This document shows, one piece after another, positions 2,449 to 19,338 of a stretch of DNA of 64,000 nt; within the stretch, counting starts at the first letter, position 1; each line of letters begins with the position of its first letter. Source of the stretch: Syntrophales bacterium. GTDB lineage: Bacteria; Desulfobacterota; Syntrophia; Syntrophales; UBA2210. The position numbers and the translations under genes were made by a program. Under the pieces are notes generated by a model that ran no database searches, was not told where the DNA came from, and worked only from the letters and a program-made list of their open reading frames with translations. The stretch is from the NCBI GenBank assembly GCA_036825195.1, contig DAISYQ010000001.1, positions 179,629 through 243,628 on the forward strand, read 5' to 3'.

Positions 2449-2640
2449 ATGTTCGGAATAGGCGTGCCAGAGCTGTTGATTATCCTAGTGATTATTCTGA
2501 TTATCTTTGGTGCCGGTAAGCTTCCTGAAATAGGCGGTGCCATAGGCAAGGGCATCAAAAACTTCAAGAAATCTTACCAAGATAACGACGAGGTGGAAAA
2601 CGCCGAGGGTACCAAGAAGATCAACAACGACAGCAAGTAA
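2449..2640 (+). CDS. tatA: Twin-arginine translocase subunit TatA/E
   Basis: [41 protein letters not shown] is a canonical TatA N-terminus. SD GAGAGGTG lies 8 nt upstream of ATG 2449. The tracked ORF start at 2416 is probably too early. Confidence 0.9.
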
Positions 2641-2818
2641 TCCATTTCGAGACAGACGGAGGTGGTCCATCGAGTCATTATCGATCCTACAAATTTCTGT
2701 AGGTTGTCGGAACGCCAACCGTAAGATGCTCCCTTCGGCCTCGTAATATCATCACGAAGAAGGATTCCCGCCTTTCAAAGTATCAAGCCCCAAAATTTCC
2801 GGATCCTTCAGCCATATC

Positions 2819-3523
2819 TCATAATGACTTCTCAGGCTTTTCAGAGGGCAGAAGGTACGATTCAACAAAATCCATGACAAATCGGGCATAGTCCTCCACG
2901 GACACCTTTCTTCTTCGGTATTTCCACCGCTTAAGATACCAGTCCTGAAGCACGGCCTTGATGACGGCCGCCGTGAGATCCCCTTCAACGGTCGCAAAGA
3001 GCCCCGCCGCAATACCTTCTTCAACGATGTCGGAAAAGATATTTTCCGTAAACAGCTCCGCCTCGATGGCTTTTTTGTGTGTGTCTTTATTGAGGTTTTT
3101 GGTCTCCATATAGGCAAAGTAAAACCAGAGTTGCATGACTTCACTGAGATACAGGTGAGTCTGTATCGCCCTTCTCAGTTTCTGATGCGGATCGTCGATT
3201 CCTTCAATCTGGTCGGCAAGCACCTTCACAACAAGGGTTTGCCCCTGGGTTTGTATCATATCGAGGAGCTCTTCCTTACTGGAAAAATAGGTATAGAGGG
3301 CGCCCATGCTGAGTCCCGCTTCGGTGCTCAACTCCCGAAGGCTCATGGCCGTAAATCCCTTCTTGTTGCTTATGGCGAGTGCCGCATCGAATATCTTGAC
3401 AAGATTCTTGACGGCAACACCCTCTTTCTTTATCTTTATTTTTTCCCTGTTTTCCAGAAAGAGTTCCCTGCAGATATCCTCCTCGGAAAGATTGACCATC
3501 TTTTTAAAGGTTTCAAATCTCAC
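2819..3523 (-). CDS. TetR/AcrR-family transcriptional regulator
   Basis: 234-aa ORF. The N-terminal HTH region (AVKNLVKIFDAALAISNKKGFTAMSLRELSTEAGLSMGALYTYFSSKEELL) is typical of TetR_N. It starts 9 nt after the upstream acyl-CoA dehydrogenase stop, so it is probably the last gene of the operon. Confidence 0.85.
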   Translation of the reverse strand: MRFETFKKMVNLSEEDICRELFLENREKIKIKKEGVAVKNLVKIFDAALAISNKKGFTAMSLRELSTEAGLSMGALYTYFSSKEELLDMIQTQGQTLVVKVLADQIEGIDDPHQKLRRAIQTHLYLSEVMQLWFYFAYMETKNLNKDTHKKAIEAELFTENIFSDIVEEGIAAGLFATVEGDLTAAVIKAVLQDWYLKRWKYRRRKVSVEDYARFVMDFVESYLLPSEKPEKSL

Positions 3524-3532
3524 GTTCGCCTC

Positions 3533-4741
3533 TTACCTCACTTCTCGATCCTTGTATTCCCTCAGAATCCTGCGGGCAACGGACACCTTGTGCACCTCGT
3601 CCGCACCGTCATATATCCTGGCTGCCCGTTCATGGCGGTAATAATAGGGAATTATGCAGTCATCCGTCATCCCCAGTCCTCCGTGGACCTGCAGTGCCTT
3701 GTCCATTACATTCTGCATCACATTCGCCACGTAGAATTTGATGAGAGAAATATCCTCTCGCACCTCTTTGACGCCATGGTTCTCGATCTTCCATGCGGTA
3801 TGGAGTGTGAACAGCCGCGCCGCCTGTATATCGGCGGCACACTCGGCAATCCAGGCCTGAATGATCTGCTTTGTTGCAAGGGTCCTTCCATCCGGTGTCA
3901 CCACCCTCTCCGATGCCCGTTTGCACATGAGGTCAAACATCCTCTTGCAGATTCCCAGCCATCTCATACAGTGATGAATGCGGCCCGGTCCGAGTCGCTC
4001 CTGGGCGATGACAAATGCATGTCCTTCCGGACCCAGAAGATTTGTCAGGGGCACGCGACAATTCTGATACATGATCTCTCCATGACCGGTATAATCCGTG
4101 CCTGCTTCTCCCATGACCGGGATATTCCGAACCTGATTGAAGCCGGGGGTGTCGGTGGGAACGATGATCATACTGGTCCGAAGATAGGGAGGATTTTCCG
4201 GGTTTGTCGTGGCCATCACAATGGCAAAGGCAGCGCCGTCCGATGAAGAGGAGTACCACTTATGACCATTGATGACATACTCGTCCCCATCTTTGACGGC
4301 CGTGGCATTCATCATCACCGGGTTGGAGCCGGGCATGTCGATCTCGGTCATGGAAAAACAGCTCCTCATATCTCCCGCCACGAGCGGTCTGAGCCACTTC
4401 TCTTTCTGCTCGTCGGTTCCGTACTTGTAAAGGATCTCTATATTACCGGCATCAGGGGCCTGACACCCAAAAACGTAGTGACCGATGGGCGATCTACCCA
4501 GGGATTCGGATACAAAGGCATGTTCCACAAGATTAAGACCCATGCCGCCGAATTCCTTCGGATGATTCGGGGCCCAGAGCTCCATCTGTTTCACCATTTT
4601 TCTCTTTTCCGCAAGCACGGGGAGCATCTCCCTGAACGTCTTGTTCAGAAATTCGGGCTCGAGGGGTATGAGTTCCTTATCTACAAACTCATCGATCATG
4701 CCCGTAATAACCTGGATTGTTTCAGGTATTGAAAAATCCAT
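3533..4741 (-). CDS. Acyl-CoA dehydrogenase, FadE2 / ACAD10-11 C-terminal-domain type
   Basis: The sequence from MDFSIPETIQVITGMIDEFVDKELIPLEPEF... onward has ACAD-fold length and motifs (MTEIDMPGSNP, RIYDGADEVH). SD AAGGAGG precedes ATG 4741. The tracked ORF start at 4819 is probably too early. Confidence 0.85.
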   Translation of the reverse strand: MDFSIPETIQVITGMIDEFVDKELIPLEPEFLNKTFREMLPVLAEKRKMVKQMELWAPNHPKEFGGMGLNLVEHAFVSESLGRSPIGHYVFGCQAPDAGNIEILYKYGTDEQKEKWLRPLVAGDMRSCFSMTEIDMPGSNPVMMNATAVKDGDEYVINGHKWYSSSSDGAAFAIVMATTNPENPPYLRTSMIIVPTDTPGFNQVRNIPVMGEAGTDYTGHGEIMYQNCRVPLTNLLGPEGHAFVIAQERLGPGRIHHCMRWLGICKRMFDLMCKRASERVVTPDGRTLATKQIIQAWIAECAADIQAARLFTLHTAWKIENHGVKEVREDISLIKFYVANVMQNVMDKALQVHGGLGMTDDCIIPYYYRHERAARIYDGADEVHKVSVARRILREYKDREVR

Positions 4742-4870
4742 GTGACACCTCCTTCGAGGATATGTTGTGATCATGATTGGGTTTACAAGATTGCACTCCC
4801 TTGTGTTTCTTATGGACAAACATATGAAACCCCGAACGGTTTATGCTTTCAATGCAAGGATATAGATGCC

Positions 4871-5938
4871 TTACAGAGAGCCCTTTTCTAGTGCCCGCAA
4901 CGCCGCCCGTTCCAGGATTTGAACCCCCACGATCATCATCTGGAACCTCTGATCGGATGTCTGTCCGTGATAGTAACGGTAGTAGATCTGCTGGGCGATA
5001 ACCGCCAGGCGGAACAGACCGAAACAGTAGTAAAAGGTGATATCATCAAATGATATGCCGGATTTTTCCGCGTAGAGATCGATCTGTTCTTTCCGGGTCA
5101 TCGCAAACTCGATTGGCTCCGGCATAAACCGCAGCATCTGCAGTTCGGGCGGATCATTTTTTTCCACACGATATGCCAGAATATTCCCGATATCCATGGC
5201 CGGATCTCCGATGGTGGCCATCTCCCAATCCAATACCCCGATAATACTGGTCGGATCGTTGATGTCGACGACCATGTTATCGAGCTTGAAATCGTTATGT
5301 ACAATGGCCGCGCGATCGGGATCGGGGGGCATGTTTGCATGAATCCATGACATGATAACTTCACAATCCGGAGCATCAGGGGTGCGAGCCTGACGGTAGC
5401 GTTCGCTCCAACCTTCGACCTGGCGCTGTATATATCCTTCGGGCTTGCCGAAGGTCTCGAGCCCGACCTGTTTGTAATCGATGGAGTGCAGACGGGCATG
5501 CACATCCACCATGTTTTCGTTCAACGCACGGGCCTGATCCGGGTTGAACATGACACCATCGGGAAGCTCCTTCCTGATTACCATCCCCTTGATACGCTTC
5601 ATCAGATAGAATGGACTGCCCAGTATGGAATCGTCTTCCGTATACAGAACAGGTGCCGGACACCAGGGGAACACCCCGTGCAGTGCACCCAGAATCGTGT
5701 ACTCCCGTTGCATATCATGGGCGGTCTTTGCCTTCCTGCCTATGGGAGGCCGTCTGAGAATCAACTCTTCGTTCCCGATCCTGACAAGATAGGTGAGGTT
5801 TGAGTGACCGCCGGGAAATTGTTTGAGCATGACAGGGCCTTTCAGACTCGGGAGAGCCTCTTTCAGAAATGACTCTATCGTGCCGATATTGAGTTCCTCT
5901 CCTTTCCTGGCCGAGACCGCCTGGTCTGCTGCTTTCAT
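4871..5938 (-). CDS. Aminoglycoside-phosphotransferase-fold kinase, ACAD10/11 N-terminal-domain / LvaA-like
   Basis: Catalytic loop IVHNDFKLDNMVVD (HxDxxxxN) and metal-binding VLDWEMATIGDPAMD. It is adjacent to and co-directional with the FadE2-type ACAD. SD AGGGGGGTGG precedes ATG 5938. Confidence 0.8.
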   Translation of the reverse strand: MKAADQAVSARKGEELNIGTIESFLKEALPSLKGPVMLKQFPGGHSNLTYLVRIGNEELILRRPPIGRKAKTAHDMQREYTILGALHGVFPWCPAPVLYTEDDSILGSPFYLMKRIKGMVIRKELPDGVMFNPDQARALNENMVDVHARLHSIDYKQVGLETFGKPEGYIQRQVEGWSERYRQARTPDAPDCEVIMSWIHANMPPDPDRAAIVHNDFKLDNMVVDINDPTSIIGVLDWEMATIGDPAMDIGNILAYRVEKNDPPELQMLRFMPEPIEFAMTRKEQIDLYAEKSGISFDDITFYYCFGLFRLAVIAQQIYYRYYHGQTSDQRFQMMIVGVQILERAALRALEKGSL

Positions 5939-5963
5939 CACCACCCCCCTTTCGTAGGTACAT

Positions 5964-6941
5964 TTACGATCCTTCAAATAATCGACGCGGATTGTCTACC
6001 ATCATGGTTGTGATCTGCTCCTCAGTTATTCCGGCCTTTTTCAAAACGGGAAGCACCTCTTCAAAGATGCGGGTGGGCCTCCAGTTCGGCATCCCTTTCG
6101 AGATGATCTTCGAAACGCCTGGCCTGGCCAGCCAGAAATTAACCCAGTCATGGGAGAGCATAATCTGCGTCGCATAGCCTAATCCCAAAAGACCGATCAG
6201 ACACGCCTCACGACGCGAATCAGGCGGTGCTCCAACGATACCTTCGACTCCGAAACGATCGAACCCGATGTATACTCCCTTTTCCAGGATACGCATCAGA
6301 TATTCCATATCGGTGCTGCCGCCAATATGGCCTATCATGACACGTTGAGGGTCCGCCCCTTCGGCAATCAGCAGTTCCGCCTGCTCAAGCCCCATGGTGC
6401 CCTTCTCTGTGTGGGTCAGGATAGGAATCGCTTCTTCCTTCGAGACTTTTGCAGCCGCTCTGAAAAACATCTCTTCATAAGCGGAAATTACGCCTTTACT
6501 TGATGCCAGTTTCAATACTCCGGGTCTTATGCCCGTTGTGCCTATACCGTCGATCACCTCTTTCTTAAACATGTCGTATATCTGTGTGACACCTTTTCCG
6601 AATTTACTCATTGTCTTGAAATACGGGGAAGCACCCTCCGCTTCCGAATAGTATCCCGAAGCACAGATGATATTGAGTCCACTTTTCTCCGCAATTTCCC
6701 GCAACAACAGCGGATTGCGGCCGCAGTCATTCGTCGTGGCGTCCACGACGGTATTCACTCCGTGGGCCATGATATTTTCCGCCATTTCCAATCCAGCGTT
6801 TATACAGGCATTCCGATCGAACGGTGCCAGGGTGATGTCTCCTTCAAAGCCTGGATAACCAAAGACAAAGTGCTCGTGCATCAGTGTCGTGCCTAAAGCA
6901 TCCGATGGTACGGTCCCTGATACAGTCTGAATTTTCCGCAT
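5964..6941 (-). CDS. Phosphotriesterase-family (PHP / PTE-like lactonase) binuclear-metal amidohydrolase
   Basis: 325 aa. The metal-ligand pattern is intact: LMHEHF (HxH), VLKLASSKG (Lys), LTHTEKG, MIGHIGGS, MLSHDW. SD AGGAGG is upstream. Confidence 0.85.
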   Translation of the reverse strand: MRKIQTVSGTVPSDALGTTLMHEHFVFGYPGFEGDITLAPFDRNACINAGLEMAENIMAHGVNTVVDATTNDCGRNPLLLREIAEKSGLNIICASGYYSEAEGASPYFKTMSKFGKGVTQIYDMFKKEVIDGIGTTGIRPGVLKLASSKGVISAYEEMFFRAAAKVSKEEAIPILTHTEKGTMGLEQAELLIAEGADPQRVMIGHIGGSTDMEYLMRILEKGVYIGFDRFGVEGIVGAPPDSRREACLIGLLGLGYATQIMLSHDWVNFWLARPGVSKIISKGMPNWRPTRIFEEVLPVLKKAGITEEQITTMMVDNPRRLFEGS

Positions 6942-6969
6942 GTTTCAACTCCTCCTGATGTAGATATGA

Positions 6970-8655
6970 TTACATATTCTTTAGTTCATTTTTTAATATT
7001 TTTCCACCAGGATTCTTGGGAAGCATGGTATTGGTTACGACAACATAATCGGGCACCTTGAAATCCGCGATACGTTTGCGGCAAAAATCTTTAATTTCAT
7101 CCTCTGAGAGGATCTCACCCGGTACCGGCCAGATCACCGCCTTTGTTTTTTCACCCAGTACCGTGTCCGGAACGCCGACGACACCGACTTCAAGCACCTT
7201 GGGATGCAGGCTGATCAGGTTTTCGAGTTCAACGGAATAGACATTCTCGCCACCCCTGCATATCATGCTTTTAATGCGGTCCACCACATAGGTATAACCG
7301 TCATCATCCATGTAGCCCAAATCTCCCGTTTTAAACCAGCGCCTGTCATTTTCGTCGGTACAGAAGCTTGCGACTGTCTCTTCCGGCAGGTTCCAGTACC
7401 CCGGGCTGATTGAGGGGCTGCATGCCAGGATCTCGCCGGTCTCTCCCCGGGCCACGTCGCGCAGTTGTGAATCGACGATGCGCAGACCGCTGTTCCCCAT
7501 GGCACCCCCAACGCTGCCGGGCTTGGAAAGGATCGTGTCCCAGTCACCGGCCATACCCAGCAGCCAGCCGGCGGAAGCCCCTTCGGTGAAACCGTAGCCA
7601 TTTCCAATGCGGGAATTCGGAAAATCTTCTGAGAGCCTGAGGCACATCTCGGGTGGCATGGGGGAACCGCCCTGCAGGATGTAGGCAAGTTTGTTGGCCT
7701 TCACGAGGTCGGGATAGCGAGGCTGGAGGCTTAAAATCCAGTACATGGCGGCAACGATGATGGTGAAGTTTATCTTTTCATCGATCAACGCATCCAACAC
7801 CTGTCCCGGGCTGAAGGTGGTAACTGCTACGGCCGAGGCACCCATGAGGTTCAGATTGATCAGGGTATGCAGTGTGGTGACATGAAAAAAGGGCGTCACA
7901 ATCAGTTGCTTCCATTCGCTGATGTCCGTGTCGGGATCATAGATCTTTGCCAGGGAGTGTTTGCAGTTCATGGCATTGTTGATCACGCCGCGGTGCAGGG
8001 TAATGGTTCCCTTGGGCCTACCGGTTGTGCCTGAGGTATAGATCAGACTGCAGATATCTCGCTCGGTTACGTCAACCAGGACTTCACGGGGAGCCTTTTT
8101 CTCCATCATAGCGCCGAGCGGTATCGCCGAGTCTTTTGCCTCCGTGCCGGAAACAAAGAGGTACCGCAGATTGGGTACTATCCTCTCAATATCCTTAACG
8201 GTCTCCCACAGGCTCGCTTCTATTGCCGCGGCGATGCAACCGCTGTCTTCGAGCTGCCTCCGGGCCTCGTCTGCGGCAAGCCTTGCATTGATAATAACGG
8301 AAATGGCCCCGATCTGCGACAATGCCAGATACATGACGAAGGCCTCGGGAATATTGTTCATCATGATTGCAACCCGTTCGCCCTTTTCAATGCCGTAGTC
8401 CTGCTGCAGGCAGTAGGCAACGTTGTTGACCACCGCATCAAATTCATTGTAACTCCAGCGGATGTTGAAATCCGGGAAAAAGAGCATCTCCCTGTCACCA
8501 AACCGGGCCACCCCTTCTTTCATGAGTTCGGTCAACGTCCCATACCGGCAGGCCCATACATCCTGAATCTCGTTTTCATAGCGTACCCTGATTACCCCGT
8601 CCCTTGGCCATTGCAGAGGCGGCGTAAGGGACACGTGAGAAGATCTTCTTGACAT
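6970..8655 (-). CDS. AMP-forming acyl-CoA ligase (adenylate-forming superfamily)
   Basis: AMP-binding core IYTSGTTGRPKGTI, GYGFTE, TGDLGYMDDDGY, and a C-terminal K in PKNPGGKILK. SD AAGGAGGG precedes ATG 8655. The tracked start at 8688 is an alternative. Confidence 0.85.
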   Translation of the reverse strand: MSRRSSHVSLTPPLQWPRDGVIRVRYENEIQDVWACRYGTLTELMKEGVARFGDREMLFFPDFNIRWSYNEFDAVVNNVAYCLQQDYGIEKGERVAIMMNNIPEAFVMYLALSQIGAISVIINARLAADEARRQLEDSGCIAAAIEASLWETVKDIERIVPNLRYLFVSGTEAKDSAIPLGAMMEKKAPREVLVDVTERDICSLIYTSGTTGRPKGTITLHRGVINNAMNCKHSLAKIYDPDTDISEWKQLIVTPFFHVTTLHTLINLNLMGASAVAVTTFSPGQVLDALIDEKINFTIIVAAMYWILSLQPRYPDLVKANKLAYILQGGSPMPPEMCLRLSEDFPNSRIGNGYGFTEGASAGWLLGMAGDWDTILSKPGSVGGAMGNSGLRIVDSQLRDVARGETGEILACSPSISPGYWNLPEETVASFCTDENDRRWFKTGDLGYMDDDGYTYVVDRIKSMICRGGENVYSVELENLISLHPKVLEVGVVGVPDTVLGEKTKAVIWPVPGEILSEDEIKDFCRKRIADFKVPDYVVVTNTMLPKNPGGKILKNELKNM

Positions 8656-8840
8656 GGCTCCCTCCTTTTTTATGGTCGTACATGACATGAATTTGACAGC
8701 ATCTGTCTTGTACTGTGCAATGCATCGTGTGTCAACAAAATAATGAGCGAGCGCTCGTTTTTTAATTGCAATATTTCACCCGCTACAGTACCATCTGGCA
8801 GAATGCATAAATACAAATGTATCTCAGGACTGGATGGTGT

Positions 8841-9611
8841 ATGAAAATTCTGGTATGCGTAAAGCAGGTTCCCGACTCTGATGGGGCGATATCCATAAGC
8901 ACCTCAGAGAGCAGGGTCGTCTTTGAGGGGACCTACCGGATGAACCGCTTTGACGAGTATGCCTTGGAGGAAGCCCTCCGGATACGGGAAAAGATATCCG
9001 TCGAGACCATTGATATCGTATCGGTAGGTCCCGTCAGGGTCGAATCGACGATACGAAAATCCTTAGAGATGGGCGCATCGAGGGGCTTTCATATCTTCAT
9101 CGAAGGTGAGGAACACATGAACCCGTTTGAGACGGCCACACGGATTGCATCATTTGCCGGAAGGGAGGGGTACGATCTCATTCTCACCGGAGTCATGGCC
9201 GAAGACGATATGCAGAGCCAGGTAGGTCCGATGATCGCCGAGATGCTCGGTTATCCCTCCGCATCGTCCGTCATCTCCGAGGACATAGATCAGGAAAAAG
9301 GAATCCTCTACGCAGAGCGGGAAATCGAATCGGGGATGAGGGAATGCATCGAAATGCAACTCCCCGCCCTGATCACCGTACAGTCGGGCATTAATCGCCC
9401 CCGCTACCCCGCACTTTCGCACGTACTGCGGGCGCGATCCCAGAGAATAACAGTACTCACGGAAAACCCGGGAGAGGAACCGGCAAAACGGGAAAAGATC
9501 GTTACCTTCAGGTATCCCGAGACGACATCGAAGGGGCTGTTCCTGGAAGGCGAAACGAGAGAAAAGGCCAGGGAACTCATGCAGATATTGCACGAGAGAA
9601 CAATCATATGA
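8841..9611 (+). CDS. etfB: Electron transfer flavoprotein beta subunit
   Basis: Canonical N-terminus MKILVCVKQVPD with EtfB-length architecture. Its stop overlaps the etfA start (ATGA). Confidence 0.9.
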   Translation: MKILVCVKQVPDSDGAISISTSESRVVFEGTYRMNRFDEYALEEALRIREKISVETIDIVSVGPVRVESTIRKSLEMGASRGFHIFIEGEEHMNPFETATRIASFAGREGYDLILTGVMAEDDMQSQVGPMIAEMLGYPSASSVISEDIDQEKGILYAEREIESGMRECIEMQLPALITVQSGINRPRYPALSHVLRARSQRITVLTENPGEEPAKREKIVTFRYPETTSKGLFLEGETREKARELMQILHERTII

Positions 9612-10621
9612 ACAATACGATACGGAAGAATAAGATCGTCGCAATCGCCGAACATCGTCAGGGAACTATCACGCCAGCAACGGGGGAAACCCTCTCCCTT
9701 GTCCGGGAGATCGGAGAACTGCTCAACCTGGAAGCAACTATCCTGCTTCTTGGCACATCCATAGAGCATGGGGCATCTCAGATTGCTGCGACGACCGGTA
9801 TGGATGTAATCGCTATCGAAGGAACGGGCCTCGAACCGTACAATTGCGAAGCCTATCTGACCGCTCTCACGAGACCGCTCAAGGCATTAGATCCGCACTA
9901 TATCGTACTGCCGCATACTGCCATGGGATATGATCTCGCACCCCGTCTTGCCGTCCTCCTGCAGGCCTCTTCCATAACGGCCGTCGAGCAACTGTCTGTA
10001 AGAGGTGAATCTCTCACGTTTTTGCGGTCTCAGTGGAACGGGAAGGTCATCCTTGAAGTTGTCCCACTGACCGAACGGACGGTGGTCACCGCACTTCCCG
10101 GCTGCTGGCCCGAACTTGTTGAAAAACCGGAAAAAATCGGGAAGGTAACAATCATCCCTTGCGATACATTCCCGGTTCGTTCGAAAACCACCGGCATCAA
10201 AGAGGCCTCAAGAATGGAATTCGACCTTACTAAAGCGGATGTGATCGTAGCGGCGGGGAGAGGACTGGGGAAAGAAGAGAATCTGCAGCTTATCTACGAA
10301 CTGTCCGGGATCTTTCAGAAATCGGCGGTAGGTGCATCAAGGGCGGCCTGCGATGCGGGATGGTTTGACTACGGCAGACAGATAGGAATTACGGGGCAAA
10401 CCGTTTCACCAAATCTGTACATCGCCTGCGGGATCTCCGGGTCAACACAGCATATGGCAGGTATGAAGAGGTCTCGGATGGTGATCGCTATCAACACCGA
10501 TCCATTGGCATCGATTTTCGGCATAGCGGACTATTGTATCGTGGAAGATCTTGCCACCTTTATCCCCTGCCTCCTGGAAGAATACAATCTCGTTTCCCGT
10601 GGTCGCCACGATCCGGAGTAA
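9608..10621 (+). CDS. etfA: Electron transfer flavoprotein alpha subunit
   Basis: The C-terminal FAD-binding region (VVAAGRGLG...AVGASRAACDAGW...QIGITGQTVSPNLYIACGISGSTQHMAGM...IVAINTDP) is a diagnostic EtfA motif set. Confidence 0.9.
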   Translation: MNNTIRKNKIVAIAEHRQGTITPATGETLSLVREIGELLNLEATILLLGTSIEHGASQIAATTGMDVIAIEGTGLEPYNCEAYLTALTRPLKALDPHYIVLPHTAMGYDLAPRLAVLLQASSITAVEQLSVRGESLTFLRSQWNGKVILEVVPLTERTVVTALPGCWPELVEKPEKIGKVTIIPCDTFPVRSKTTGIKEASRMEFDLTKADVIVAAGRGLGKEENLQLIYELSGIFQKSAVGASRAACDAGWFDYGRQIGITGQTVSPNLYIACGISGSTQHMAGMKRSRMVIAINTDPLASIFGIADYCIVEDLATFIPCLLEEYNLVSRGRHDPE

Positions 10622-10818
10622 TGCCTTTCTCCTTTGGCTCGGCACCTCATCACAAAACAGGCATAAGGTCCATGCAATGCATATGCTGACGGCACCCGTA
10701 ACCGTCGGAAAGATCCCCCGTAACGATTCCGATCTGTTGTATGTTTGCAGGTACCGTGTGGGAGCATCTCCTCCCCAAGGCGAGATCTCTTCAGATACAA
10801 GGAGGGAAATTCAAACCC

Positions 10819-11226
10819 TTAAAAAGGCACATCATCGTCAGGCATACTAAAACCATTCGGTGACGACATCTCCGTCCCGAACGACTGGTTGGATCCCTGG
10901 TCTTTGCGTTCAAGCATCTGCATGTTGGAGGCTATGATTTCCGTGGTGTAGCGTTTGTTGCCATCCTTGTCGTCCCAGGCCCTCGTTTGCAGCCGACCTT
11001 CAATATAGACCAGTCTCCCTTTTGACAGGTAATTTCCTGAGATCTCCGCAAGTTTTCTGAACGTAACAATCCTGTGCCACTCCGTTTTCTGGATCTTTTC
11101 TCCATTCTTGTCCTTCCACTGTTCATCGGTGGCCAGGTTGAAATTGGTTACCATGGTACCATCCTGGGTGTACCGTACCTCCGGATCCGCACCCAGTCTT
11201 CCAATCAATATGACTTTATTAACCAT
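10819..11226 (-). CDS. ssb: Single-stranded DNA-binding protein
   Basis: [22 protein letters not shown]-fold start with an acidic C-terminal tip DDDVPF. Confidence 0.95.
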
Positions 11227-11457
11227 TTCTCGCTCCTTGTGAAAATTTCTTTATGAGATACCAAACAGACTATATTGTTGAATGTTAATCCTGTCAAATT
11301 AATTATCTGTACTATGGTTCCGGTGCACTACCGTATATTCTCCATTGACTTCGTCAGTATTATTAAGTAGAAAATTGCACATATCCCTTGGTTGTATCCC
11401 CATGTTGCGGGATATGGCGCTTATTACAGTATTCTTGGTAGAAAGAAGGATGTATAG

Positions 11458-12282
11458 TTGGACATTTGGGGGGGAATCCTACTTGGTATAATTCAGGGAC
11501 TGACAGAATTTCTTCCCGTGAGCAGTTCCGGTCACCTGGTGCTGGTGCAAAGTTTCATACAGGAGTTTCAACAACCGGGGGTACTGTTCGATGTTATGCT
11601 GCATTCCGGGACGCTTCTGGCCGTTCTGGTTTTTTTCAGGAAAGAAATTCTGGATATTATACGATCACTCATGCCGGTTGGATGGTTCCCGAGTTCCAAG
11701 AGAAGCAATGACCCCATGCAGATCCGTTCCGGGAGAAAGATGGCGCTCTATATTATAATCGGAACGATAGTAACAGGGATTATCGGTCTCTCATGTGAGG
11801 ACAGGATACACCGTCTTTTTGCCTCGCCAACAACGGCTTCCTGCATGTTGCTTATCACCGGAATGCTGCTGTTTATATCCGACCGATTTCGGGGGGGCAG
11901 AGTGGAAAAGGATATGAATATTACCGACAGCGTTGTGATCGGAATTGTTCAGGGATTTTCGCTGATTCCCGGAATATCACGATCCGGCTCCACGATTGCT
12001 TTCGGCATCTTTCGGGGGCTGGACGGCCAGACGGCTGCCCGATTTTCATTTATGCTCTCCATCCCCGCCATCGTGGGCGCCCTTGTTCTCGAGTCAAGAT
12101 ATATAGGGATGGTGCCCCCCGGCGATATGACAATCTATCTGACAGGAATGATCGTCGCCGCTGTAACCGGTTTTCTGACGCTGAAGCTTCTGCTCTTTGT
12201 GATCAGAAAACGGAAACTGAGCATATTTGCTTATTATTGCTGGATTCTTGGAATTTCTACATTGATTATTAACATAATTTAA
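11458..12282 (+). CDS. uppP: Undecaprenyl-diphosphate phosphatase
   Basis: GLTEFLPVSSSGHL and PGISRSGSTI motifs with multiple TM segments. Apparent TTG start. Confidence 0.9.
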   Translation: MDIWGGILLGIIQGLTEFLPVSSSGHLVLVQSFIQEFQQPGVLFDVMLHSGTLLAVLVFFRKEILDIIRSLMPVGWFPSSKRSNDPMQIRSGRKMALYIIIGTIVTGIIGLSCEDRIHRLFASPTTASCMLLITGMLLFISDRFRGGRVEKDMNITDSVVIGIVQGFSLIPGISRSGSTIAFGIFRGLDGQTAARFSFMLSIPAIVGALVLESRYIGMVPPGDMTIYLTGMIVAAVTGFLTLKLLLFVIRKRKLSIFAYYCWILGISTLIINII

Positions 12283-12308
12283 TCTAATCTTCCGAGAGAA
12301 GGCGGAGG

Positions 12309-14519
12309 ATGGTTTTGAGTAAAAAAGGTGCAGGCAAAGAGAACATCATGGCGAAGGAAATCGGGGGCGTTATATCCCTCGCCTGTGCTGTCTTCGTATT
12401 TGTATGTCTCTTTTCGTACAACCCTCACGATCCTTCTCTGACCCATTACGAAGCGGATACCGTAATGGTGGCCAACTACGGCGGCCTCATAGGATCGTAC
12501 CTCTCCGATGGTATGCTCAGGGTGTTCGGCATGACCTCCTATCTGTTTCCCCTATTGCTTGTTTTCATCGCCTTCAAGCTCTTTCTCGGAGGACGGTTCC
12601 GGATGACCCTCTCTCCCGCCGTCGGTTTTACGGGTCTCGTGTTTGCCCTATCGGCGCTTCTGGCGGCACAGTACAGCGCTGTCTCCTTTTATGGTGTGGA
12701 TCTTAACGCCGGAGGTCTTCTCGGTAAACTCTCACTGAGTGTATTATACTCCGGCTTGAATCACATAGGGGCCAACATTGTTCTGGTCGTTATCTTACTG
12801 GTATCATTGATGATCACTCTGAACGTTTCACTTGTATCGCTCGTAAGAAGACTGACAATACTGCTGTCGAGCACGCTTCTGAGGTTCAAGACATTCGTGG
12901 TGGTCGGGATGGGGCGTCTGAAAAGGAAAAAAACAGTCAAAAAACGGAAAAGACCGGCCATTACACGGAAGGTTCCTGTTATTTCAACCGAGTTTGTGAG
13001 AGAGGAAGAGAAAAATGAGGGCGAACAGGTCTCCTTCGAATTTCTCCAATCGGAGGGCAGTTTTACTCTTCCTTCGCTGAATCTCCTTGACAAAGTCGAG
13101 GTCAGGAATACGAAAATGAAGCGGGAAAGCCTTATTATGAATTCCCGTATCCTTGAAAAAAAACTTGCGGATTTCGGGGTTGAAGGGACTGTTACGGAAG
13201 TTAAGCCGGGTCCGGTGGTAACCATGTATGAGCTCGAACCGGCCGCCGGCGTCAAGATCAACAAAATAACAAATCTCTCCGACGATCTTGCCCTCGCCCT
13301 GAAGGCTCAGAGCATCAGGATCGTGGCGCCCATTCCCGGGAAAGCCGCCATAGGCATCGAAATTCCCAACCAGGAGCGGGAATCGGTCTATCTGAGGGAT
13401 GTGCTTGACAGCGAGGAGTTTCTGGAATCGAAGTATATTTTGCCCATAGCGCTGGGGAAAAATATTACAGGGAAAACCATGATAACCGACCTTGTCAAGA
13501 TGCCCCATCTCCTCATCGCCGGCACCACCGGTTCCGGGAAAAGCGTCTCTCTCAACGCCATGATATGCAGTATCCTGTTCAAGGCGAAGCCGGACGAGGT
13601 CAAATTTATCATGATCGATCCGAAGAGGCTTGAACTGTCAGGATACGATGGCATACCGCACCTCCTCCACCCGGTGGTGGTCAATCCCAAACAGGCATCG
13701 CAGGCCCTCAAATGGACCGTCGATGAAATGGAGCGGAGGTATGCCGTGATAGCCGCATCGGGCGTCAAGAGCATCGAGCGGTACAACCGACTGATAGAAA
13801 AACAAAAAGGTACACCCAAAAATCAATTGCTGGGAACATCTGCCTCAGAGAGCGAAGGGCCCCCTGAGAAACTTCCCTACATAATCATCATCATAGATGA
13901 ACTGGCCGACCTGATGATGGTGGCGCAGAGGAATGTTGAGGCATCCCTTGCCCGCCTGGCACAGATGGCGCGGGCCGCCGGCATACACCTCATCCTGGCA
14001 ACACAGAGACCCTCCGTCGATGTCATCACCGGCATCATAAAGGCCAACTTTCCCACACGGATATCGTTTCAGGTATCGTCGAGGGTGGATTCGAGAACCA
14101 TTCTGGACGAATTGGGTGCGGAAAAACTTCTCGGAGCCGGTGACATGTTGTTTCTCCCGCCCGGTACATCGAAGCTGGTGCGTATCCACGGCGCTTTTGT
14201 CTCCGACGGGGAGATTTCCAATATTGTAAGTTTATTAAAAAAGCAGGGGAGGCCCTCATACGATCAATCGATATCCCGTTACGATCCGGAGTCAAAGGAA
14301 GGATCGGGTCCGGAAGAAGAGTTTGATGAAAAGTATGACGAAGCGGTCGAACTGGTGACCGACCTAGGACAGGCCTCCATATCACTTGTGCAACGATACT
14401 TGAAGATAGGTTATAATCGTGCCGCCCGTATTGTAGAAAAAATGGAGGCTGAAGGTGTCGTGGGTCCGTCCGATGGCGCCAAGCCCCGGAAGATATTGGT
14501 AGGAAAACTTCCACGATAA
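12309..14519 (+). CDS. ftsK: DNA translocase FtsK
   Basis: N-terminal TM helices, a linker, a motor domain with Walker A GTTGSGKS and IIIIDELADLMM, and a C-terminal gamma winged helix (ISLVQRYLKIGYNRAARIVEKME). Confidence 0.95.
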   Translation: MVLSKKGAGKENIMAKEIGGVISLACAVFVFVCLFSYNPHDPSLTHYEADTVMVANYGGLIGSYLSDGMLRVFGMTSYLFPLLLVFIAFKLFLGGRFRMTLSPAVGFTGLVFALSALLAAQYSAVSFYGVDLNAGGLLGKLSLSVLYSGLNHIGANIVLVVILLVSLMITLNVSLVSLVRRLTILLSSTLLRFKTFVVVGMGRLKRKKTVKKRKRPAITRKVPVISTEFVREEEKNEGEQVSFEFLQSEGSFTLPSLNLLDKVEVRNTKMKRESLIMNSRILEKKLADFGVEGTVTEVKPGPVVTMYELEPAAGVKINKITNLSDDLALALKAQSIRIVAPIPGKAAIGIEIPNQERESVYLRDVLDSEEFLESKYILPIALGKNITGKTMITDLVKMPHLLIAGTTGSGKSVSLNAMICSILFKAKPDEVKFIMIDPKRLELSGYDGIPHLLHPVVVNPKQASQALKWTVDEMERRYAVIAASGVKSIERYNRLIEKQKGTPKNQLLGTSASESEGPPEKLPYIIIIIDELADLMMVAQRNVEASLARLAQMARAAGIHLILATQRPSVDVITGIIKANFPTRISFQVSSRVDSRTILDELGAEKLLGAGDMLFLPPGTSKLVRIHGAFVSDGEISNIVSLLKKQGRPSYDQSISRYDPESKEGSGPEEEFDEKYDEAVELVTDLGQASISLVQRYLKIGYNRAARIVEKMEAEGVVGPSDGAKPRKILVGKLPR

Positions 14520-14520
14520 A

Positions 14521-15870
14521 TTGAATACAACAGTCCACATTACAAGCCTGGGATGTCCCAAGAACCTGATCGACTCGGAAGTCATGGCGGCCACTCTGAT
14601 GGAGGGCGGTTTTGAGATCGTTTCTCTACCCGAAGAAGCGGATACGATCATCGTCAATACCTGCGCCTTCATACTTCCTGCAAAGGAGGAATCGATCGAT
14701 GAAATCTTCCGTATGGCGGAGTTCAAATATACGGGTCGATGTCGGCACCTGATCGTTACGGGTTGCCTTCCCCAGCGATACGGTACCATACTCGAAAAAG
14801 AACTCCCCGAGGTCGATCTCTTTCTGGGGACCGGCGAAATCCCCCATATAGCCTCTCTCGTCGCATCCCTGCGAGGAGGCAGCCAGCCGGAGCGACGATC
14901 TTGCATCGGGAAACCCGATTTTCTCATGAACTCCTCCCATGCCCGTCAATTGATGACGCCGTCGTATACCGCCTATCTGAAGATAGCGGAGGGATGCTCC
15001 AATCACTGTTCATACTGTGTGATACCCTCCGTGAGAGGGGCGTTCAGAAGCAGACAGATGGACGACATACTGCGGGAAGCCGAAACGCTTGCCCGGGGTG
15101 GTGTTAAGGAGATCATCGTCACGGCACAGGAAACAACCCGCTACGGGGAAGACCTCGGCAAGAGATCCGCGTTGAGTTCTCTTTTGAAAGAAATGGCTCT
15201 GATAGAGGGAATCAGGTGGATCAGGCTTCTCTATACCTATCCAGCAAATCTGGACGACGAACTGTTCAGGACCATCCAAGAGGTCGAAAAGATATGCAGC
15301 TATATCGATATTCCGGTGCAGCACATAGATGACGGTATATTGCGTGCCATGAACAGACGGGACAACAGCAAGCTTATCAGAACGGTTTTAGCGAATGCCA
15401 GAAAAATGATTCCCGGCGTGGCCCTGAGGACATCACTGATCGTGGGATTCCCCGGAGAGACACAGGAGCGGTTTGACAGGCTCCTCGCCTTTGTGAGGGA
15501 AGCACGGTTTGATCATCTGGGAGCCTTTGAGTATTCGAGGGAAGAGGGAACCGCTGCAGACGCGCTCCCCGGCCATATCTCAGAGAAGGTCAAAAAGCGC
15601 AGAAGAGGGATTATCATGAAGGAACAGGCATCGATTTCCCGTGAGATCAACCAATCGCTCATCGGTTCCGTGACGGACGTTATCATAGAAGAGACATCGG
15701 ATCTTCCGGGGTACGACTATGTCGGGAGAGCGAGAAGACAAGCGCCCGATATAGACGGGATCACCTATGTGAAAGCCGGGAATAAGACACGTGGTGATAT
15801 TGTGGAATGCCGGATCGTTTCGGCGGATGAGTATGACCTGTTTGCCGAAGAGGTGAAGTCTGGTTGCTGA
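14521..15870 (+). CDS. rimO: Ribosomal protein S12 methylthiotransferase RimO
   Basis: UPF0004 N-domain (ITSLGCPKNLIDSE), radical-SAM CSNHCSYC, and a C-terminal TRAM domain. TTG start 1 nt after the ftsK stop. Confidence 0.9.
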   Translation: MNTTVHITSLGCPKNLIDSEVMAATLMEGGFEIVSLPEEADTIIVNTCAFILPAKEESIDEIFRMAEFKYTGRCRHLIVTGCLPQRYGTILEKELPEVDLFLGTGEIPHIASLVASLRGGSQPERRSCIGKPDFLMNSSHARQLMTPSYTAYLKIAEGCSNHCSYCVIPSVRGAFRSRQMDDILREAETLARGGVKEIIVTAQETTRYGEDLGKRSALSSLLKEMALIEGIRWIRLLYTYPANLDDELFRTIQEVEKICSYIDIPVQHIDDGILRAMNRRDNSKLIRTVLANARKMIPGVALRTSLIVGFPGETQERFDRLLAFVREARFDHLGAFEYSREEGTAADALPGHISEKVKKRRRGIIMKEQASISREINQSLIGSVTDVIIEETSDLPGYDYVGRARRQAPDIDGITYVKAGNKTRGDIVECRIVSADEYDLFAEEVKSGC

Positions 15871-15950
15871 AACCGTGAGTGGAAGAAAAGACTATAATTC
15901 TGATATATTCGATTAATTCGATACAGTCATCACATACTACACGGCATTAT

Positions 15951-16661
15951 TTATGTCTGAGGTATCGCCTTTTTCAAGAGATAGATGTGAGCGATTCCGA
16001 AAAACTGTGAGAATGATCGGGTGACTTCGAATCCCCTTTTCTCCATCAGGCGTTCAAGTTTAGCGGGAGAAGGGAACCCCATCACCGAATCGCGCAGATA
16101 CCGGTAGGCCTTGAAATCACCCGATACCAGTCCTCCGATATACGGGAGAAGGACCTTAAAATAGGTAAGATATATCCACCGCCAGGGAAGATGAGACGGT
16201 ACTGACAGTTCGAGCACCGCCAGGTTTCCACCATCTTTCAGTACCCTGCGGGCCTCGTCCAGGAAGGCGGGCAGGTCTGTCATGTTCCGTATCCCGAAGG
16301 CTGTCATCGCGTGATCAAAGGTTTCGTTCAAGAAGGGCATGGCGGTGGCATCCCCCACCGTGATACGGAAGCGCCCGCCAAACTCTCTATTTTTCCGCGC
16401 GGCAATTTCCAGCATCCTGGGAGATATATCCATACCGATGACCGTGCATCCGGTAGTGCTACAGGCACGGGATGCCATATCTCCGGTACCGGTTGCTATA
16501 TCAAGTACCGTGTCGCCATCCTTGATATGCAGGGATGATATGACTCTTTTTCTCCAGCGGCTATCCATGGATAATGAAAGTGCGGCGTTGAGCCGGTCGT
16601 AGGTGGGGGCGATTCTGTCGAACATGGAACTTATGATGGCCGGTGATTTATCAATCCGCAT
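15951..16661 (-). CDS. ubiE: Demethylmenaquinone/ubiquinone C-methyltransferase
   Basis: FDRIAPTYDRLN start, SAM motif VLDIATGTGD, and LKDGGNLAVLE. 236 aa. Confidence 0.9.
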   Translation of the reverse strand: MRIDKSPAIISSMFDRIAPTYDRLNAALSLSMDSRWRKRVISSLHIKDGDTVLDIATGTGDMASRACSTTGCTVIGMDISPRMLEIAARKNREFGGRFRITVGDATAMPFLNETFDHAMTAFGIRNMTDLPAFLDEARRVLKDGGNLAVLELSVPSHLPWRWIYLTYFKVLLPYIGGLVSGDFKAYRYLRDSVMGFPSPAKLERLMEKRGFEVTRSFSQFFGIAHIYLLKKAIPQT

Positions 16662-17102
16662 CTTTTGTAAAACCTTCTTTGACGTTGGTATAGAATGATG
16701 CTTACCGCATATGGTTCGGCAAGACTAAATCATATGATAGGGGATTGCAAGTATCATGTCATGGCGATTCCGGAGTATTGGAAAACGGTTCTGATGGCCT
16801 CGGTCTGATGGTATGTTTGAAAAATGAAATCCTGATAAAAGATTGTCAAGGAATGTTGATTGTCGTGGGGGTACAATGTTCTTGGTTTGCAACGAAACCG
16901 TATCTGCCTCGGAAGAATCGCGACACTATTTCCCCATTATTGTCTTCACCTACAAACAAATGATCTTGACCAAAAGAAAAAATGACAATTACCATTGGAA
17001 TGGGAGTATAAGATATGAGCGACAGATGTGGAGGTCCTTTACCCGGGCATATTTGTCCAGTTCAATATTAGAGGGTTGTCCTATATCCTAACATGAGATA
17101 GC

Positions 17103-18296
17103 CTAAAAGGGAACTGGTGGTTTACTAATAGAAACGGGCATCCATGGGAACTTGTCTATCTTCGTTACAAGGTCTTTACTCGACATTTCTAAATTGCCCC
17201 AGTACTCCTCTGGATCATTAGCTTGTACTGGTCGAAGCAACGGGCTCATGTCGAAACGCCAATAAGATTTTCCCGAAGCACCTTTTTTCTCCCATGCCCG
17301 TACCTTCACCAACCGAATTAGTTCACCTCTGGCGAGGTGATCCTCACTAATAAGTTCCACCTCTTCGGCAATTTGTGAAATGAGACCCTCAAAGTCAGCC
17401 TTGATCTTTTCGTGGTTTTGTCCAAGAAGTTTAGCCGCGAAAGTGAATTGGAGATCTTTACGAAAGGACATTTCAGACTTAGCCTCCCACCCTGGAAAAG
17501 AGATCTCCTCGGTAAGGATAGCAAGGTTTTGACGGATATTGATAAATTTCTTTATACACTCGGGAGAATCTAGCTTAAGGGCCTCATAAACAGCTAAGGT
17601 TGAGGGAGTCAGCCCTGAATAACTAGAGGCGGAGCAACTGAACTGAAGTGTTATCCTCACCCAATCTTTATTTTGACTCTGGTTGAGAAGGAATTGGCAT
17701 TGCTGCGTTCCAAGGGTGGAGATCTCTCGATACCATGTCTCCTGAGTATTAGTGGGGACCCTATCTATACAGCTTGTAGCTTCGATTAATGCATTCTCCA
17801 CACCTGAAAGCACTTGATTTGCATTCTGCTTTACCACCTCCACGTCATCACTCGTAATCGGCCGGAAGTGAGCAAGTGAATTTCGGATGTTTCCAATCTC
17901 TTGAAGCTTAAGGGTTACAACACGCTTAACTGCTCTAAAGTATCTGCTAAAGTATTTCCAGTAGGAATCGGAAGTAATTAACCCTACCAACTCTCCACTA
18001 GTGAGATGCATTAGGGGTGAATTTATAGTAAAACCAAGGTACCCAAACGTTTCATTTTGAGCGATCCGCTTTTTGGCTAAAGAAGCTATCGTCGTATGAT
18101 TTCCATCATCGCTGTAAATCTCGAAAGTTGGCCAAGAGTCTCCAGCCTCGGTCTTGAGTACAAGAAAGACAAAAGTTCTGAGAGCGTTCTCAATACGGAA
18201 CAGACAAGACAAAGCTTCATAATAGTGAATGTGCAACCAAGTGTCTGGTATTGTTAATCCATCTTTATCAGCATCTTTGGTTTTGAGCCACTCCAT
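17103..18296 (-). CDS. Orphan Swt1-like HEPN-domain protein (predicted RNase) with an uncharacterised C-terminal domain of about 220 aa
   Basis: 397-aa ORF in visibly AT-richer DNA. The N-terminal region has LFRIENALRTFVFLVL... and IGNIRNSLAHFRP, an R-N-x-x-A-H (Rx4H) HEPN catalytic motif. I recognise no motif in residues about 175-397. Confidence 0.6.
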   Translation of the reverse strand: MEWLKTKDADKDGLTIPDTWLHIHYYEALSCLFRIENALRTFVFLVLKTEAGDSWPTFEIYSDDGNHTTIASLAKKRIAQNETFGYLGFTINSPLMHLTSGELVGLITSDSYWKYFSRYFRAVKRVVTLKLQEIGNIRNSLAHFRPITSDDVEVVKQNANQVLSGVENALIEATSCIDRVPTNTQETWYREISTLGTQQCQFLLNQSQNKDWVRITLQFSCSASSYSGLTPSTLAVYEALKLDSPECIKKFINIRQNLAILTEEISFPGWEAKSEMSFRKDLQFTFAAKLLGQNHEKIKADFEGLISQIAEEVELISEDHLARGELIRLVKVRAWEKKGASGKSYWRFDMSPLLRPVQANDPEEYWGNLEMSSKDLVTKIDKFPWMPVSISKPPVPF

Positions 18297-18732
18297 ACTC
18301 TTATCCTATCAGAGAGCCTCGGTAAATTACTTTGCCGGCTTTGAATTTTTCAATTCTTGATGCAATCTTACTTCATTTTACTCAGAATGAAAAGATGAAA
18401 TACCATTGTATAATCAACATAATGAATTTTCACCACTGGGTAGTTTGCGGTATTGTAGAGCAGAAACAAGTTTGTGAAATATGAAGAAAATGGCAACAAC
18501 TAATAGTGAATTTAATCTGAAATAATACATATTTTCCTAAAGTGCCGAATGCTTACTTACAGGAAGTAATACAAGCGATGGGTAACAGATATTCGTATAT
18601 GGCCTATAGAACCGCCCTCACAATTTCATCTATTTTATTCTCTTGTTTCCAACTATGGAAGGACTTATATAAACGGGGGCCAAGATCCTGACGGAAGGAA
18701 AAGGGGGACGTTATTTATTATTTGTTCGCTTA

Positions 18733-18760
18733 CACCGCAGGCGCTATCGCGCCTGCGGTG
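18733..18760 (-). terminator. Perfect 12-bp inverted repeat downstream of ilvN (possible terminator, but no U-tract)
   Basis: CACCGCAGGCGC-tatc-GCGCCTGCGGTG, about 85 nt past the ilvN stop. On the minus strand it is followed by A-rich rather than T-rich sequence, so its function as an intrinsic terminator is uncertain. Confidence 0.35.
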
Positions 18761-18843
18761 TTGTGATTCCGGTCCGGCTAACACGGTATGGGACCGGTGC
18801 GGCCGCCGGTATCAGTAAAGATTGTTCTCAGATACTTTGCTAA

Positions 18844-19338
18844 TCAAGAGCTACTATCTTTATACCGCAGAGCAAGTACACCGGTTCGTGCGATTTTATC
18901 AATACCGAAAGGTCTGAGGAAATTGATCACTGTTTCCACCTCTTCCCTGGTTCCCGCAACCTGGATAATACAATAATCATTCCGCATGGAAATCATCTTG
19001 CAGTCAAACATGCCCATAACCCGCACCAACTCGGCTCTGTCTTTCTGATCCAGATTGATCCCGATGAGGACCATTTCCCTCTGGGCGGATTGTCCCGGGA
19101 GCAGTTCGGTGACATCCAGGACATCGACCAGACGGGTCAACTGCTTTTTCACCTTTTCAATAAAGTTCGAATCCGCATTGGTTATCGACGTTATTCTTGA
19201 AACTTCAGGAGAAATTGTCTCCGCCACACAGAGACTCTCGATATTATAGCCGAGTCGTCCGAAGACGCCGGCAACCCGGGCCAGGACGCCCGGTTTATTG
19301 TTGACCAGTATGGCGATTATACGTTCTCTTATTCCCAT
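18844..19338 (-). CDS. ilvN: Acetolactate synthase small (regulatory) subunit
   Basis: ACT-domain start (IIAILVNNKPGVLARVAGVFGRLGYNIESL). 164 aa, immediately downstream of ilvB. Confidence 0.9.
   Translation of the reverse strand: MGIRERIIAILVNNKPGVLARVAGVFGRLGYNIESLCVAETISPEVSRITSITNADSNFIEKVKKQLTRLVDVLDVTELLPGQSAQREMVLIGINLDQKDRAELVRVMGMFDCKMISMRNDYCIIQVAGTREEVETVINFLRPFGIDKIARTGVLALRYKDSSS

Follow-up and report, generated by a model that had tools for sequence, protein, structure and literature searches.

HEPN domains are defined by an Rx4-6H motif with a polar residue (N, D or H) after the arginine and by an E-x3-[KR] signature N-terminal to it (PMC3710099). HepS (HEPN Solo), from the Salmonella prophage Gifsy-1, is a partnerless, autoinhibited tetramer that is activated by a phage tail-tip protein and then acts as a tRNA anticodon nuclease (PMC13043305). 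AbiD, AbiD1 and AbiF of the Abi2 family are seemingly single-gene abortive-infection (Abi) HEPN RNases, typically AT-rich and mobile (PMC3710099, PMC13064643); AbiF, whose HEPN domain belongs to the sister Abi2/Swt1 clade, is blocked by an upstream non-coding RNA, and AbiV is also part of a type III toxin–antitoxin (TA) system (PMC13064643). Small, self-contained defense genes flanked by attC sites are carried as integron cassettes, termed BRiCs, and in the “biobanks” of sedentary chromosomal integrons (10.1101/2024.07.02.601719; refs 4-6 in 10.64898/2026.03.17.712381). Here we describe a 397-amino-acid HEPN protein encoded between ilvN and ubiE in a 64,000-nucleotide stretch of a Syntrophales genome (“the window”). 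The protein joins an N-terminal HEPN domain to a C-terminal domain that we find only in its own family. With slightly better than even confidence, we read it as a self-contained HEPN ribonuclease, most likely a one-protein abortive-infection or anti-phage effector. Its gene moves horizontally as a single-ORF (open reading frame) unit and is an integron gene cassette in some genomes.

A first-pass annotation of the window had reported the ORF together with two peptides, LFRIENALRTFVFLVL and IGNIRNSLAHFRP, both of which we found at the position given (Table 1), and had assigned its first part to the Rx4H, Swt1-like HEPN domains. The Swt1-like HEPN profile PF18731 matches residues 33-165 of the protein over profile positions 4-113 of 115 (E = 1.5e-5) and is matched by all 40 aligned family members at E <= 0.01 (best 7.8e-8); the match is already precomputed for many database homologs. 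Both published signatures are present, as R138-N139...H143 and E36-x3-R40, and the placement of the Rx4H motif at the C-terminal end of helix 124-142 also agrees with the published description (PMC3710099). E36, N37, R40, R138, N139 and H143 are invariant in the alignment (n = 40). The AlphaFold2 (AF2) model of the full-length protein (predicted local distance difference test, pLDDT, 85.8; predicted template-modeling score, pTM, 0.86) places helices at residues 23-57, 70-84, 124-142 and 149-175. PADLOC, which the annotation had proposed running, gave as its best match the profile PDC-M34B, over the HEPN domain only (residues 31-158, E = 1.6e-7). PDB sequence and profile searches returned noise and were set aside, and Foldseek retrieved no solved HEPN structure for the N-terminal domain, so the fold assignment rests on profile, motifs and secondary structure. 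By these measures the N-terminal domain is an HEPN of the Swt1/Abi2 type that has all the residues required to cleave RNA without a metal ion, and we predict that it is an active RNase.

The C-terminal 220 residues are predicted to form a confidently folded alpha/beta domain. The annotation had recognized no motif in residues ~175-397, and our searches found no relative either: there was no match in Pfam, NCBIfam or PHROG and no PDB sequence match, and Foldseek against PDB and BFVD, run with the whole chain and with the C-terminal domain alone, gave no E below 0.016 and no significant match, with a best E of 0.026 and TM scores below 0.25. Within the family the domain carries the invariant motifs VPTN, D-x-L-A-x-G, E-Y-W-G, PW-MP and a terminal PF. 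Its profile, searched against 1.84 billion representative proteins, gave 219 matches (clusters), all of them this fusion, and every complete match is ~385-430 amino acids long with the domain at ~175-395. Since it is confined to one architecture, the domain is no promiscuous module, and on this evidence it exists only fused to this HEPN. An origin by fusion or fission from the partners of HEPN-only relatives was rejected (hhalign probability <1%): the C-terminal regions of the two Swt1-type proteins compared, one from an Acidisarcina plasmid and one from locus L064, are not homologous to that of the window protein. The conserved tail probably docks on the HEPN domain, a reading drawn from the pLDDT of residues 371-390, which is 77-82 in the full-length model and falls below 50 in a model lacking the HEPN domain.

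The weak Foldseek matches (PP7 coat protein, CutA/PII-like proteins and the AP2 appendage) were non-significant and were not used. The highest-probability one (0.54, likewise non-significant) was the coat protein dimer of PP7 (Leviviridae), an RNA-hairpin-binding beta-sheet/helix fold, which offers a lead for an RNA-binding role.

We compared this protein with the closest described systems. Like HepS, it is an HEPN protein that stands alone: its Rx4-6H motif is canonical, its gene co-occurs with neither a partner nor an inhibitor gene, and its family is found on mobile DNA; HepS is the closest functional precedent and our working model for autoinhibition, activation by a phage protein and RNA cleavage. 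The family differs from HepS in its extra 220-residue domain and in being chromosomal or cassette-borne rather than prophage-borne. The window protein resembles no PDB chain in sequence or fold, a comparison in which the presence of HepS in the PDB copies was not checked. It shares its HEPN clade with AbiD, AbiD1 and AbiF, but it has no Pfam Abi_2 match, its C-terminal domain is unrelated to theirs, and no counterpart of the non-coding RNA that neutralizes AbiF is detectable at the window locus. PF18731 proteins such as Ava_2192, a HEPN-AAA+ protein encoded in restriction-modification (R-M) operons (PMC3710099), belong to the same HEPN subfamily by profile and have their motifs intact; in the window protein, however, the fused partner is a novel alpha/beta domain rather than an AAA+ ATPase, a transmembrane helix or a restriction endonuclease, and the gene has no R-M operon context. 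PDC-M34B is a HEPN-only profile of ~190 residues from a multi-gene candidate system, and it leaves the C-terminal domain unmatched; no PDC-M34A partner was seen beside the window ORF, whose neighbors are ilvN and ubiE, and the literature searched held no mention of PDC-M34. Nor is the HEPN family among the cassette-borne defense systems described in that literature. Overall, the family belongs to no named defense system. What is new here is the C-terminal domain and the integron link, solo HEPN Abi-like effectors being already a crowded class.

The gene order around the ORF is gatCAB-tatAC-PBP1-ilvBN-ORF-ubiE-rimO-ftsK-bacA-ssb, and the stretch holding the ORF is AT-rich, as first described: windowed GC is 0.34-0.45 along ~16600-18800 and 0.50-0.63 in the flanks. 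The GC (0.436) and third-position GC (GC3, 0.432) of the ORF are both the lowest among the 45 window ORFs of at least 150 amino acids (means 0.509 and 0.573; z = -2.5 and -2.7). The two closest relatives, whose UbiE proteins are 89% and 82% identical to that of the window, share the window's gene order from gatC through ssb, lack the HEPN gene and leave ~235 bp between ilvN and ubiE. Homology to three empty sites (L145, L146 and L147) ends at 18765 and restarts at 16773 by blastn. The shared synteny and the empty junction mark the segment 16774-18764 as a lineage-specific insertion. The junction alignment shows that the insert splits the ilvN terminator hairpin of the relatives and leaves the promoter-like region of ubiE whole. 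Horizontal acquisition, proposed from the sequence alone, was thus borne out by synteny and by foreign composition. The first-pass annotation had treated all of 16662-18843 as foreign, which holds for 16774-18764; the outer parts, 16662-16773 and 18765-18843, are native intergenic DNA.

No target-site duplication was found at the insert edges by blastn and junction alignment. The candidate CCGGAATC, present at both edges, was rejected: both copies already lie ~30 bp apart in the empty sites. As the first reading had it, there is no integrase within 10 kb on either side of the ORF, no tRNA in the entire window and no flanking direct repeat beyond chance 12-mers. The flanks of the ORF, described as lacking a convincing ORF, indeed hold none longer than 82 amino acids, nor any Rfam match or tandem repeat. 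The relatives' junctions were found by protein search followed by contig look-ups, which replaced a ubiE-anchored metagenome scan whose best relatives were 57% identical, without synteny, and uninformative on the junction.

Could the HEPN gene instead be ancestral at this junction and have been deleted in the two closest relatives? Just two independent empty-site lineages were compared, and more distant relatives have another gene upstream of ubiE. Against deletion, the ilvN terminator is intact in the empty sites and split by the insert in the window, the composition of the insert is foreign, the closest homologs (71-72% identity) lie at non-syntenic positions, and the ORF turns up elsewhere in unrelated surroundings and, in other phyla, as a cassette. 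We regard a deletion as hardly credible. The insert region is 100% identical across four independent assemblies from different studies, and the ratio of nonsynonymous to synonymous substitution rates (dN/dS) of the ORF against its closest homolog locus, L151, is 0.18; because of these two results we take the HEPN gene to be functional, fixed in the species and under purifying selection.

The family has at least 523 homologs in the protein database; among the 120 listed, nearly all are full length at ~395 residues and are either unnamed or labeled “Swt1 family HEPN domain-containing protein” by NCBI. In 185,579 species genomes (one genome per species) we found 53 loci, spread over at least 12 phyla. 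Carriers belong to Bacteroidota, several Proteobacteria classes, Desulfobacterota, Acidobacteriota, Chloroflexota, Planctomycetota, Verrucomicrobiota, Spirochaetota, Zixibacteria, WOR-3 and Gracilibacteria, and include the cultured Lutibacter maritimus DSM 24450, Psychroserpens algicola, Flavobacterium spp., Vibrio renipiscarius, Bradyrhizobium, Geothrix, Aromatoleum and Massilia. In 33 of 34 loci the gene has a lower GC content than its host, with a mean shift of -11.5 GC points (p = 4e-7). Across these 34 loci its GC follows host GC (r = 0.89), with a deficit of up to 26 points in Geothrix; since it tracks the host and yet stays lower, the difference points to a persistent AT bias and not to recent arrival alone.

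In several loci the ORF is preceded by a structured element: an imperfect palindrome of 59-146 nt, bounded by ...AAC and GTT..., that ends 25-33 nt before the ATG, with a second copy beginning directly after the stop codon. We compared the upstream R' (12 nt from GTT) with the reverse complement of the downstream R'' (ending AAC) and found 10, 10, 11, 9 and 7 of 12 positions matching in L033, L035, L047, L017 and L151, respectively, each of which has an attC directly 3' of the ORF; the same R' matches the AAC box of its own upstream element at merely 3-7 of 12. Complementarity of this kind across the ORF is the junction structure expected from cassette recombination at G|TT, and points to a vehicle that the first-pass annotation had overlooked. 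Five of 42 family loci reach at least 9/11 in the junction test, against a null of 2.3% from mismatched locus pairs. Covariance models R1 and R2, built from the family's own attC elements, also gave matches in L047, L048, L050, L151 and L017. Two other approaches were abandoned: a rigid regex-style attC detector missed most elements visible by eye and performed barely above shuffles, and MAFFT alignment of full-length attC sites misaligned their 3' ends, so that anchored, trimmed elements were used instead.

Two loci hold large arrays. L033 (Lutibacter maritimus DSM 24450, NZ_FOZP01000012.1, 1-21058) has at least 30 elements over the whole 21-kb locus, and L035 (Psychroserpens algicola Dm15, 1542-15738) has 19, in an array that begins directly after trkH. 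All elements lie on the ORF strand. The attC-like repeats are ~141 nt long, the cassettes measure 491-1338 bp, and nearly all ORFs are on one strand. Between consecutive elements, R'(n) and the reverse complement of R''(n+1) agree at 8.84/9 and 8.79/9, against ~5.2/9 for non-consecutive elements (p = 5e-18 and 2e-10). The array neighbors of the HEPN cassette are mostly ORFans, with one GIY-YIG nuclease among them, and the retrieved DNA of the two arrays contains no integrase-sized ORF that could be an integron integrase. These arrays may be sedentary chromosomal integrons or CALINs (clusters of attC sites lacking integron-integrases) of Flavobacteriaceae. They differ from the described settings of cassette defense genes in that the arrays here lie in Bacteroidota and Desulfobacterota rather than in Vibrio or mobile class 1 integrons.

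The same elements bear on a further alternative, a type III TA system like those of AbiF and AbiV, in which the HEPN RNase would be neutralized by a small structured RNA made from the 435-bp upstream region. AbiF and AbiV were themselves once deemed solo HEPN proteins (PMC13064643), the non-coding leader in the window is unusually long, and upstream folding has z < -2 in 13 of 42 family loci. The structured upstream elements, however, are attC sites that belong to the cassette before; cassettes leave no more than 22-30 nt between the GTT crossover triplet and the ATG (GTT starts 25-33 nt upstream), and in four loci same-strand upstream ORFs stop 38-88 nt before the start. Upstream sequence is conserved solely in same-genus pairs, homology to the closest homolog ends ~10 bp upstream of the ATG, and the window leader has a folding z of 0.05 (proximal 200 nt), no tandem repeats and no Rfam match. 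On this sequence evidence an AbiF-like upstream RNA antitoxin is unlikely, and we rate a type III TA arrangement as quite improbable.

The window copy itself is solitary among housekeeping genes and outside any array, and its DNA homology to the closest homolog loci covers the ORF and ~10 bp only. Covariance models R1 and R2 found no attC in the window (best 5 bits with filters off), and the 120 nt before the ATG contain no GTT. Downstream, positions 17055-17074 are identical at 16 of 20 positions to the attC that follows the L151 ORF, at the same offset from the stop (shuffle p ~0.03), suggestive of the remnant of an attC left arm. Phage-defense genes are documented among integron cassettes, which act as their reservoirs, and homologs of cassette genes outside integrons are reported to have no attC or a pseudo-attC (10.1101/2024.07.02.601719) with a mutated crossover; the window copy, with no attC and a possible AAC-to-AAT relic, fits that description. 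It is plausible from these sequence features that the insert is a stranded ex-cassette. At the other edge, the terminator hairpin of the relatives' ilvN is broken exactly at a perfect 13-bp hairpin (Table 1). We considered this hairpin as an attC and rejected it: its 3' flank resembles by eye the cassette 5' ends GTTGTAAGCAAGC and GTTATAGGCAAGCG (L033, L047), a resemblance that the covariance models do not support. A single crude attC-like pattern match at window positions 57978-58120, far from the insert, was also discarded, as the covariance models do not support it; it is probably due to chance.

The absence of a partner or antitoxin gene, noted at first for the window, extends to the family. 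Clustering of all neighboring ORFs showed no ORF family in more than five of ~50 loci in at least 12 phyla, and a Pfam and PADLOC scan of 150 neighbors within two genes showed no family in more than four. The nrdAB genes recur in three loci and were dismissed as housekeeping genes rather than partners; other housekeeping neighbors include uvrB/C, gyrB and aspartokinase. Mobile neighbors are scattered: transposases, a Mu-like prophage end, two integrases and a Phd/ParE pair. PADLOC matches among the 150 neighbors were mad2/3/8 (MADS), GajB, AriA, HmaB, mREase_IV and PD-T4-3, each in at most 4 of 150 (raw counts, uncorrected for background). The first-pass annotation had called a HEPN nuclease without a neutralizing partner unusual; that view is outdated, HepS being a solo HEPN defense protein (PMC13043305). 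On the other points the annotation's reading held where it could be checked, and none of the outcomes that it had named as refuting was encountered.

We propose the following mechanism for a one-protein effector. The protein would be made constitutively from its own AT-rich leader, and its HEPN domain would be kept inactive in cis by the C-terminal domain and docking of the tail, by assembly into an inactive oligomer as in HepS, or by both. A phage-derived cue, sensed by the C-terminal domain, would switch the HEPN domain on, and the active HEPN dimer would then cleave tRNA, rRNA or mRNA, leading to translation arrest and aborted infection. That the protein serves in defense, and that its C-terminal domain is a sensor, are both inferences. 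Several observations weigh against this picture. The window protein scores 25.7 bits against PF18731, under the gathering cut-off of 27.5 bits, and Foldseek, as noted, returned no solved HEPN structure. The case for autoinhibition comes solely from pLDDT differences between two AF2 models. Many copies, that in the window included, sit amid housekeeping genes (ilvBN, nrdAB, uvrB/C, gyrB), and co-location with recognized defense genes is merely sporadic. The family is all but missing from 50,697 phage genomes; a set of 72,556 plasmids yielded one partial match, and 2.9 million viral contigs yielded one locus. Finally, most integron cassettes have unknown, not necessarily defensive, functions.

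Some of these points would fit a horizontally acquired RNase with a non-defense role, such as stress-induced RNA turnover or processing or competition among mobile elements, and retained for being useful or neutral to the host. In the species of the window the gene is fixed and evolves under purifying selection, its surroundings are housekeeping genes in the window as in several other genomes, collections of phages and plasmids seldom contain it, most cassette functions are unknown, and HEPN domains act in RNA processing too (PMC3710099). Yet its distribution is very patchy (53 of 185,579 species genomes, over at least 12 phyla), persistent AT bias and cassette mobility are typical of conflict genes, there is no housekeeping operon partner, and bacterial HEPN domains of the Swt1/Abi2 clade are characteristically tied to R-M and Abi systems (PMC3710099). 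We consider a non-defense role possible, though doubtful, and continue to favor an effector of abortive infection or anti-phage defense.

TA cassettes are well-known residents of chromosomal integrons. The HEPN gene could be a fused TA, neutralized in cis, that mainly stabilizes its mobile array or island as TA cassettes do there, with any effect on phage incidental: it is found in very large cassette arrays, one homolog adjoins a Phd/ParE cassette, and TA cassettes are documented in chromosomal integrons (10.64898/2026.03.17.712381). However, one stable polypeptide offers no differential-stability mechanism for post-segregational killing, and the solitary window copy has no array to stabilize. 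This alternative appears improbable.

The anti-phage reading can be taken further, to a previously unrecognized one-protein immune sensor-effector whose C-terminal domain directly recognizes a phage component and frees the autoinhibited HEPN domain, and whose gene spread as a cassette over at least 12 phyla, escaped into intergenic sites of the core genome, lost its attC there and became fixed. We put this forward tentatively, as a possibility that falls short of even. If it is true, the family would provide a new sensor fold for bacterial immunity and would document cassette-to-chromosome domestication in environmental lineages of Bacteroidota and Desulfobacterota, whose integrons have hardly been studied. 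Minimal sense-and-kill immune modules are coming to light among solo HEPN proteins, few of them with known triggers, and this family offers a compact 397-residue protein with a confidently predicted, unmatched C-terminal domain. It also offers a clean natural gain event, in which sister genomes keep the empty site. An attC-flanked cassette and a stranded solitary gene together illustrate concretely how islets in chromosomes may be seeded by the cargo of integrons, and the two Flavobacteriaceae with large arrays supply a stock of genes that are mostly unknown.

Table 1. Features of the ilvN-ubiE junction, in window coordinates.
Feature	Position	Strand	Basis or remark
ubiE, UbiE-type methyltransferase gene	15951-16661		flanking gene
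Native ubiE upstream region of the ancestral junction	16662..16773	-	83% identical to L145, L146
Conserved promoter-like ATGACA-17-TATCAT, 10/12 match	16762-16734		within native ubiE upstream region
Lineage-specific insert, ~1.99 kb, GC 41.6%	16774..18764	-	blastn against empty sites and junction alignment
Possible attC left-arm relic CCTCTAATATTGAACTGGAC	17055..17074	-	crossover-box AAC changed to AAT
ORF for N-terminal HEPN domain and family-specific C-terminal domain	17103..18296	-	397 aa; coordinates include stop codon
C-terminal alpha/beta domain, residues 176-397	17106..17771	-	family alignments, AF2 model
Swt1/Abi2-type HEPN domain, residues ~23-175, all-helical	17772..18230	-	PF18731, PDC-M34B, AF2 model
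Predicted catalytic R138-N-S-L-A-H143 (Rx4H)	17868..17885	-	end of helix 124-142
E36-N-A-L-R40, second HEPN signature (E-x3-[KR])	18177..18191	-	N-terminal to Rx4H
AT-rich non-coding leader, GC 0.37	18297..18731	-	no RNA element detected
Sigma-70-like site, 9/12 match	18433-18405		within leader 18297-18731
Perfect 13-bp GC-rich hairpin, left insert edge, CAAC before, GTGTAAGCGAAC after	18732..18761	.	
Native ilvN 3' flank with left arm of ancestral ilvN terminator	18765..18843	-	82% identical to relatives
ilvN, acetolactate synthase small subunit gene	18844-19338		flanking gene

Several individual loci showed further features. In a Syntrophaceae metagenome-assembled genome (MAG; GCA_013177825.1, L005/L006 1-9191), a 59%-identical homolog lies ~750 bp downstream of an S24-type repressor on the same strand; the repressor belongs to a Mu-like prophage (Ner-like helix-turn-helix protein, MuA, MuB, GemA, Gam), an arrangement that recalls repressor-linked exclusion genes. 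Core genes adjoin the HEPN gene in L026, L057 and L059 (nrdA-nrdB, about 5300-10000) and elsewhere (gyrB and uvrB/uvrC; L064 7184-9745 and L152 2-925, 3188-5032), the same pattern as at the ilvBN/ubiE site of the window, and such conserved flanks might help transfer by homologous recombination. In L152 a Phd/YefM-ParE pair (2572-3149) directly follows a 63%-identical homolog between uvrB and uvrC; this locus passes the cassette-junction test (9/11), which suggests a mini cassette cluster wedged among core repair genes.

The HEPN gene is split into at least two ORFs in L048, L056, L057, L061 and L064, which could be pseudogenes or reflect frameshift errors in long-read MAGs. The only archaeal-labeled carrier, L019 (a 4.2-kb contig binned as Candidatus Parvarchaeota), could result from binning contamination or inter-domain transfer. 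On the far side of ubiE, the closest relatives have an aspartate kinase gene between ubiE and rimO (L145 7745-9118, L146 7719-9092), where the window has a gap of just 80 bp (15871-15950), so the window lineage appears to have lost that gene here or relocated it.

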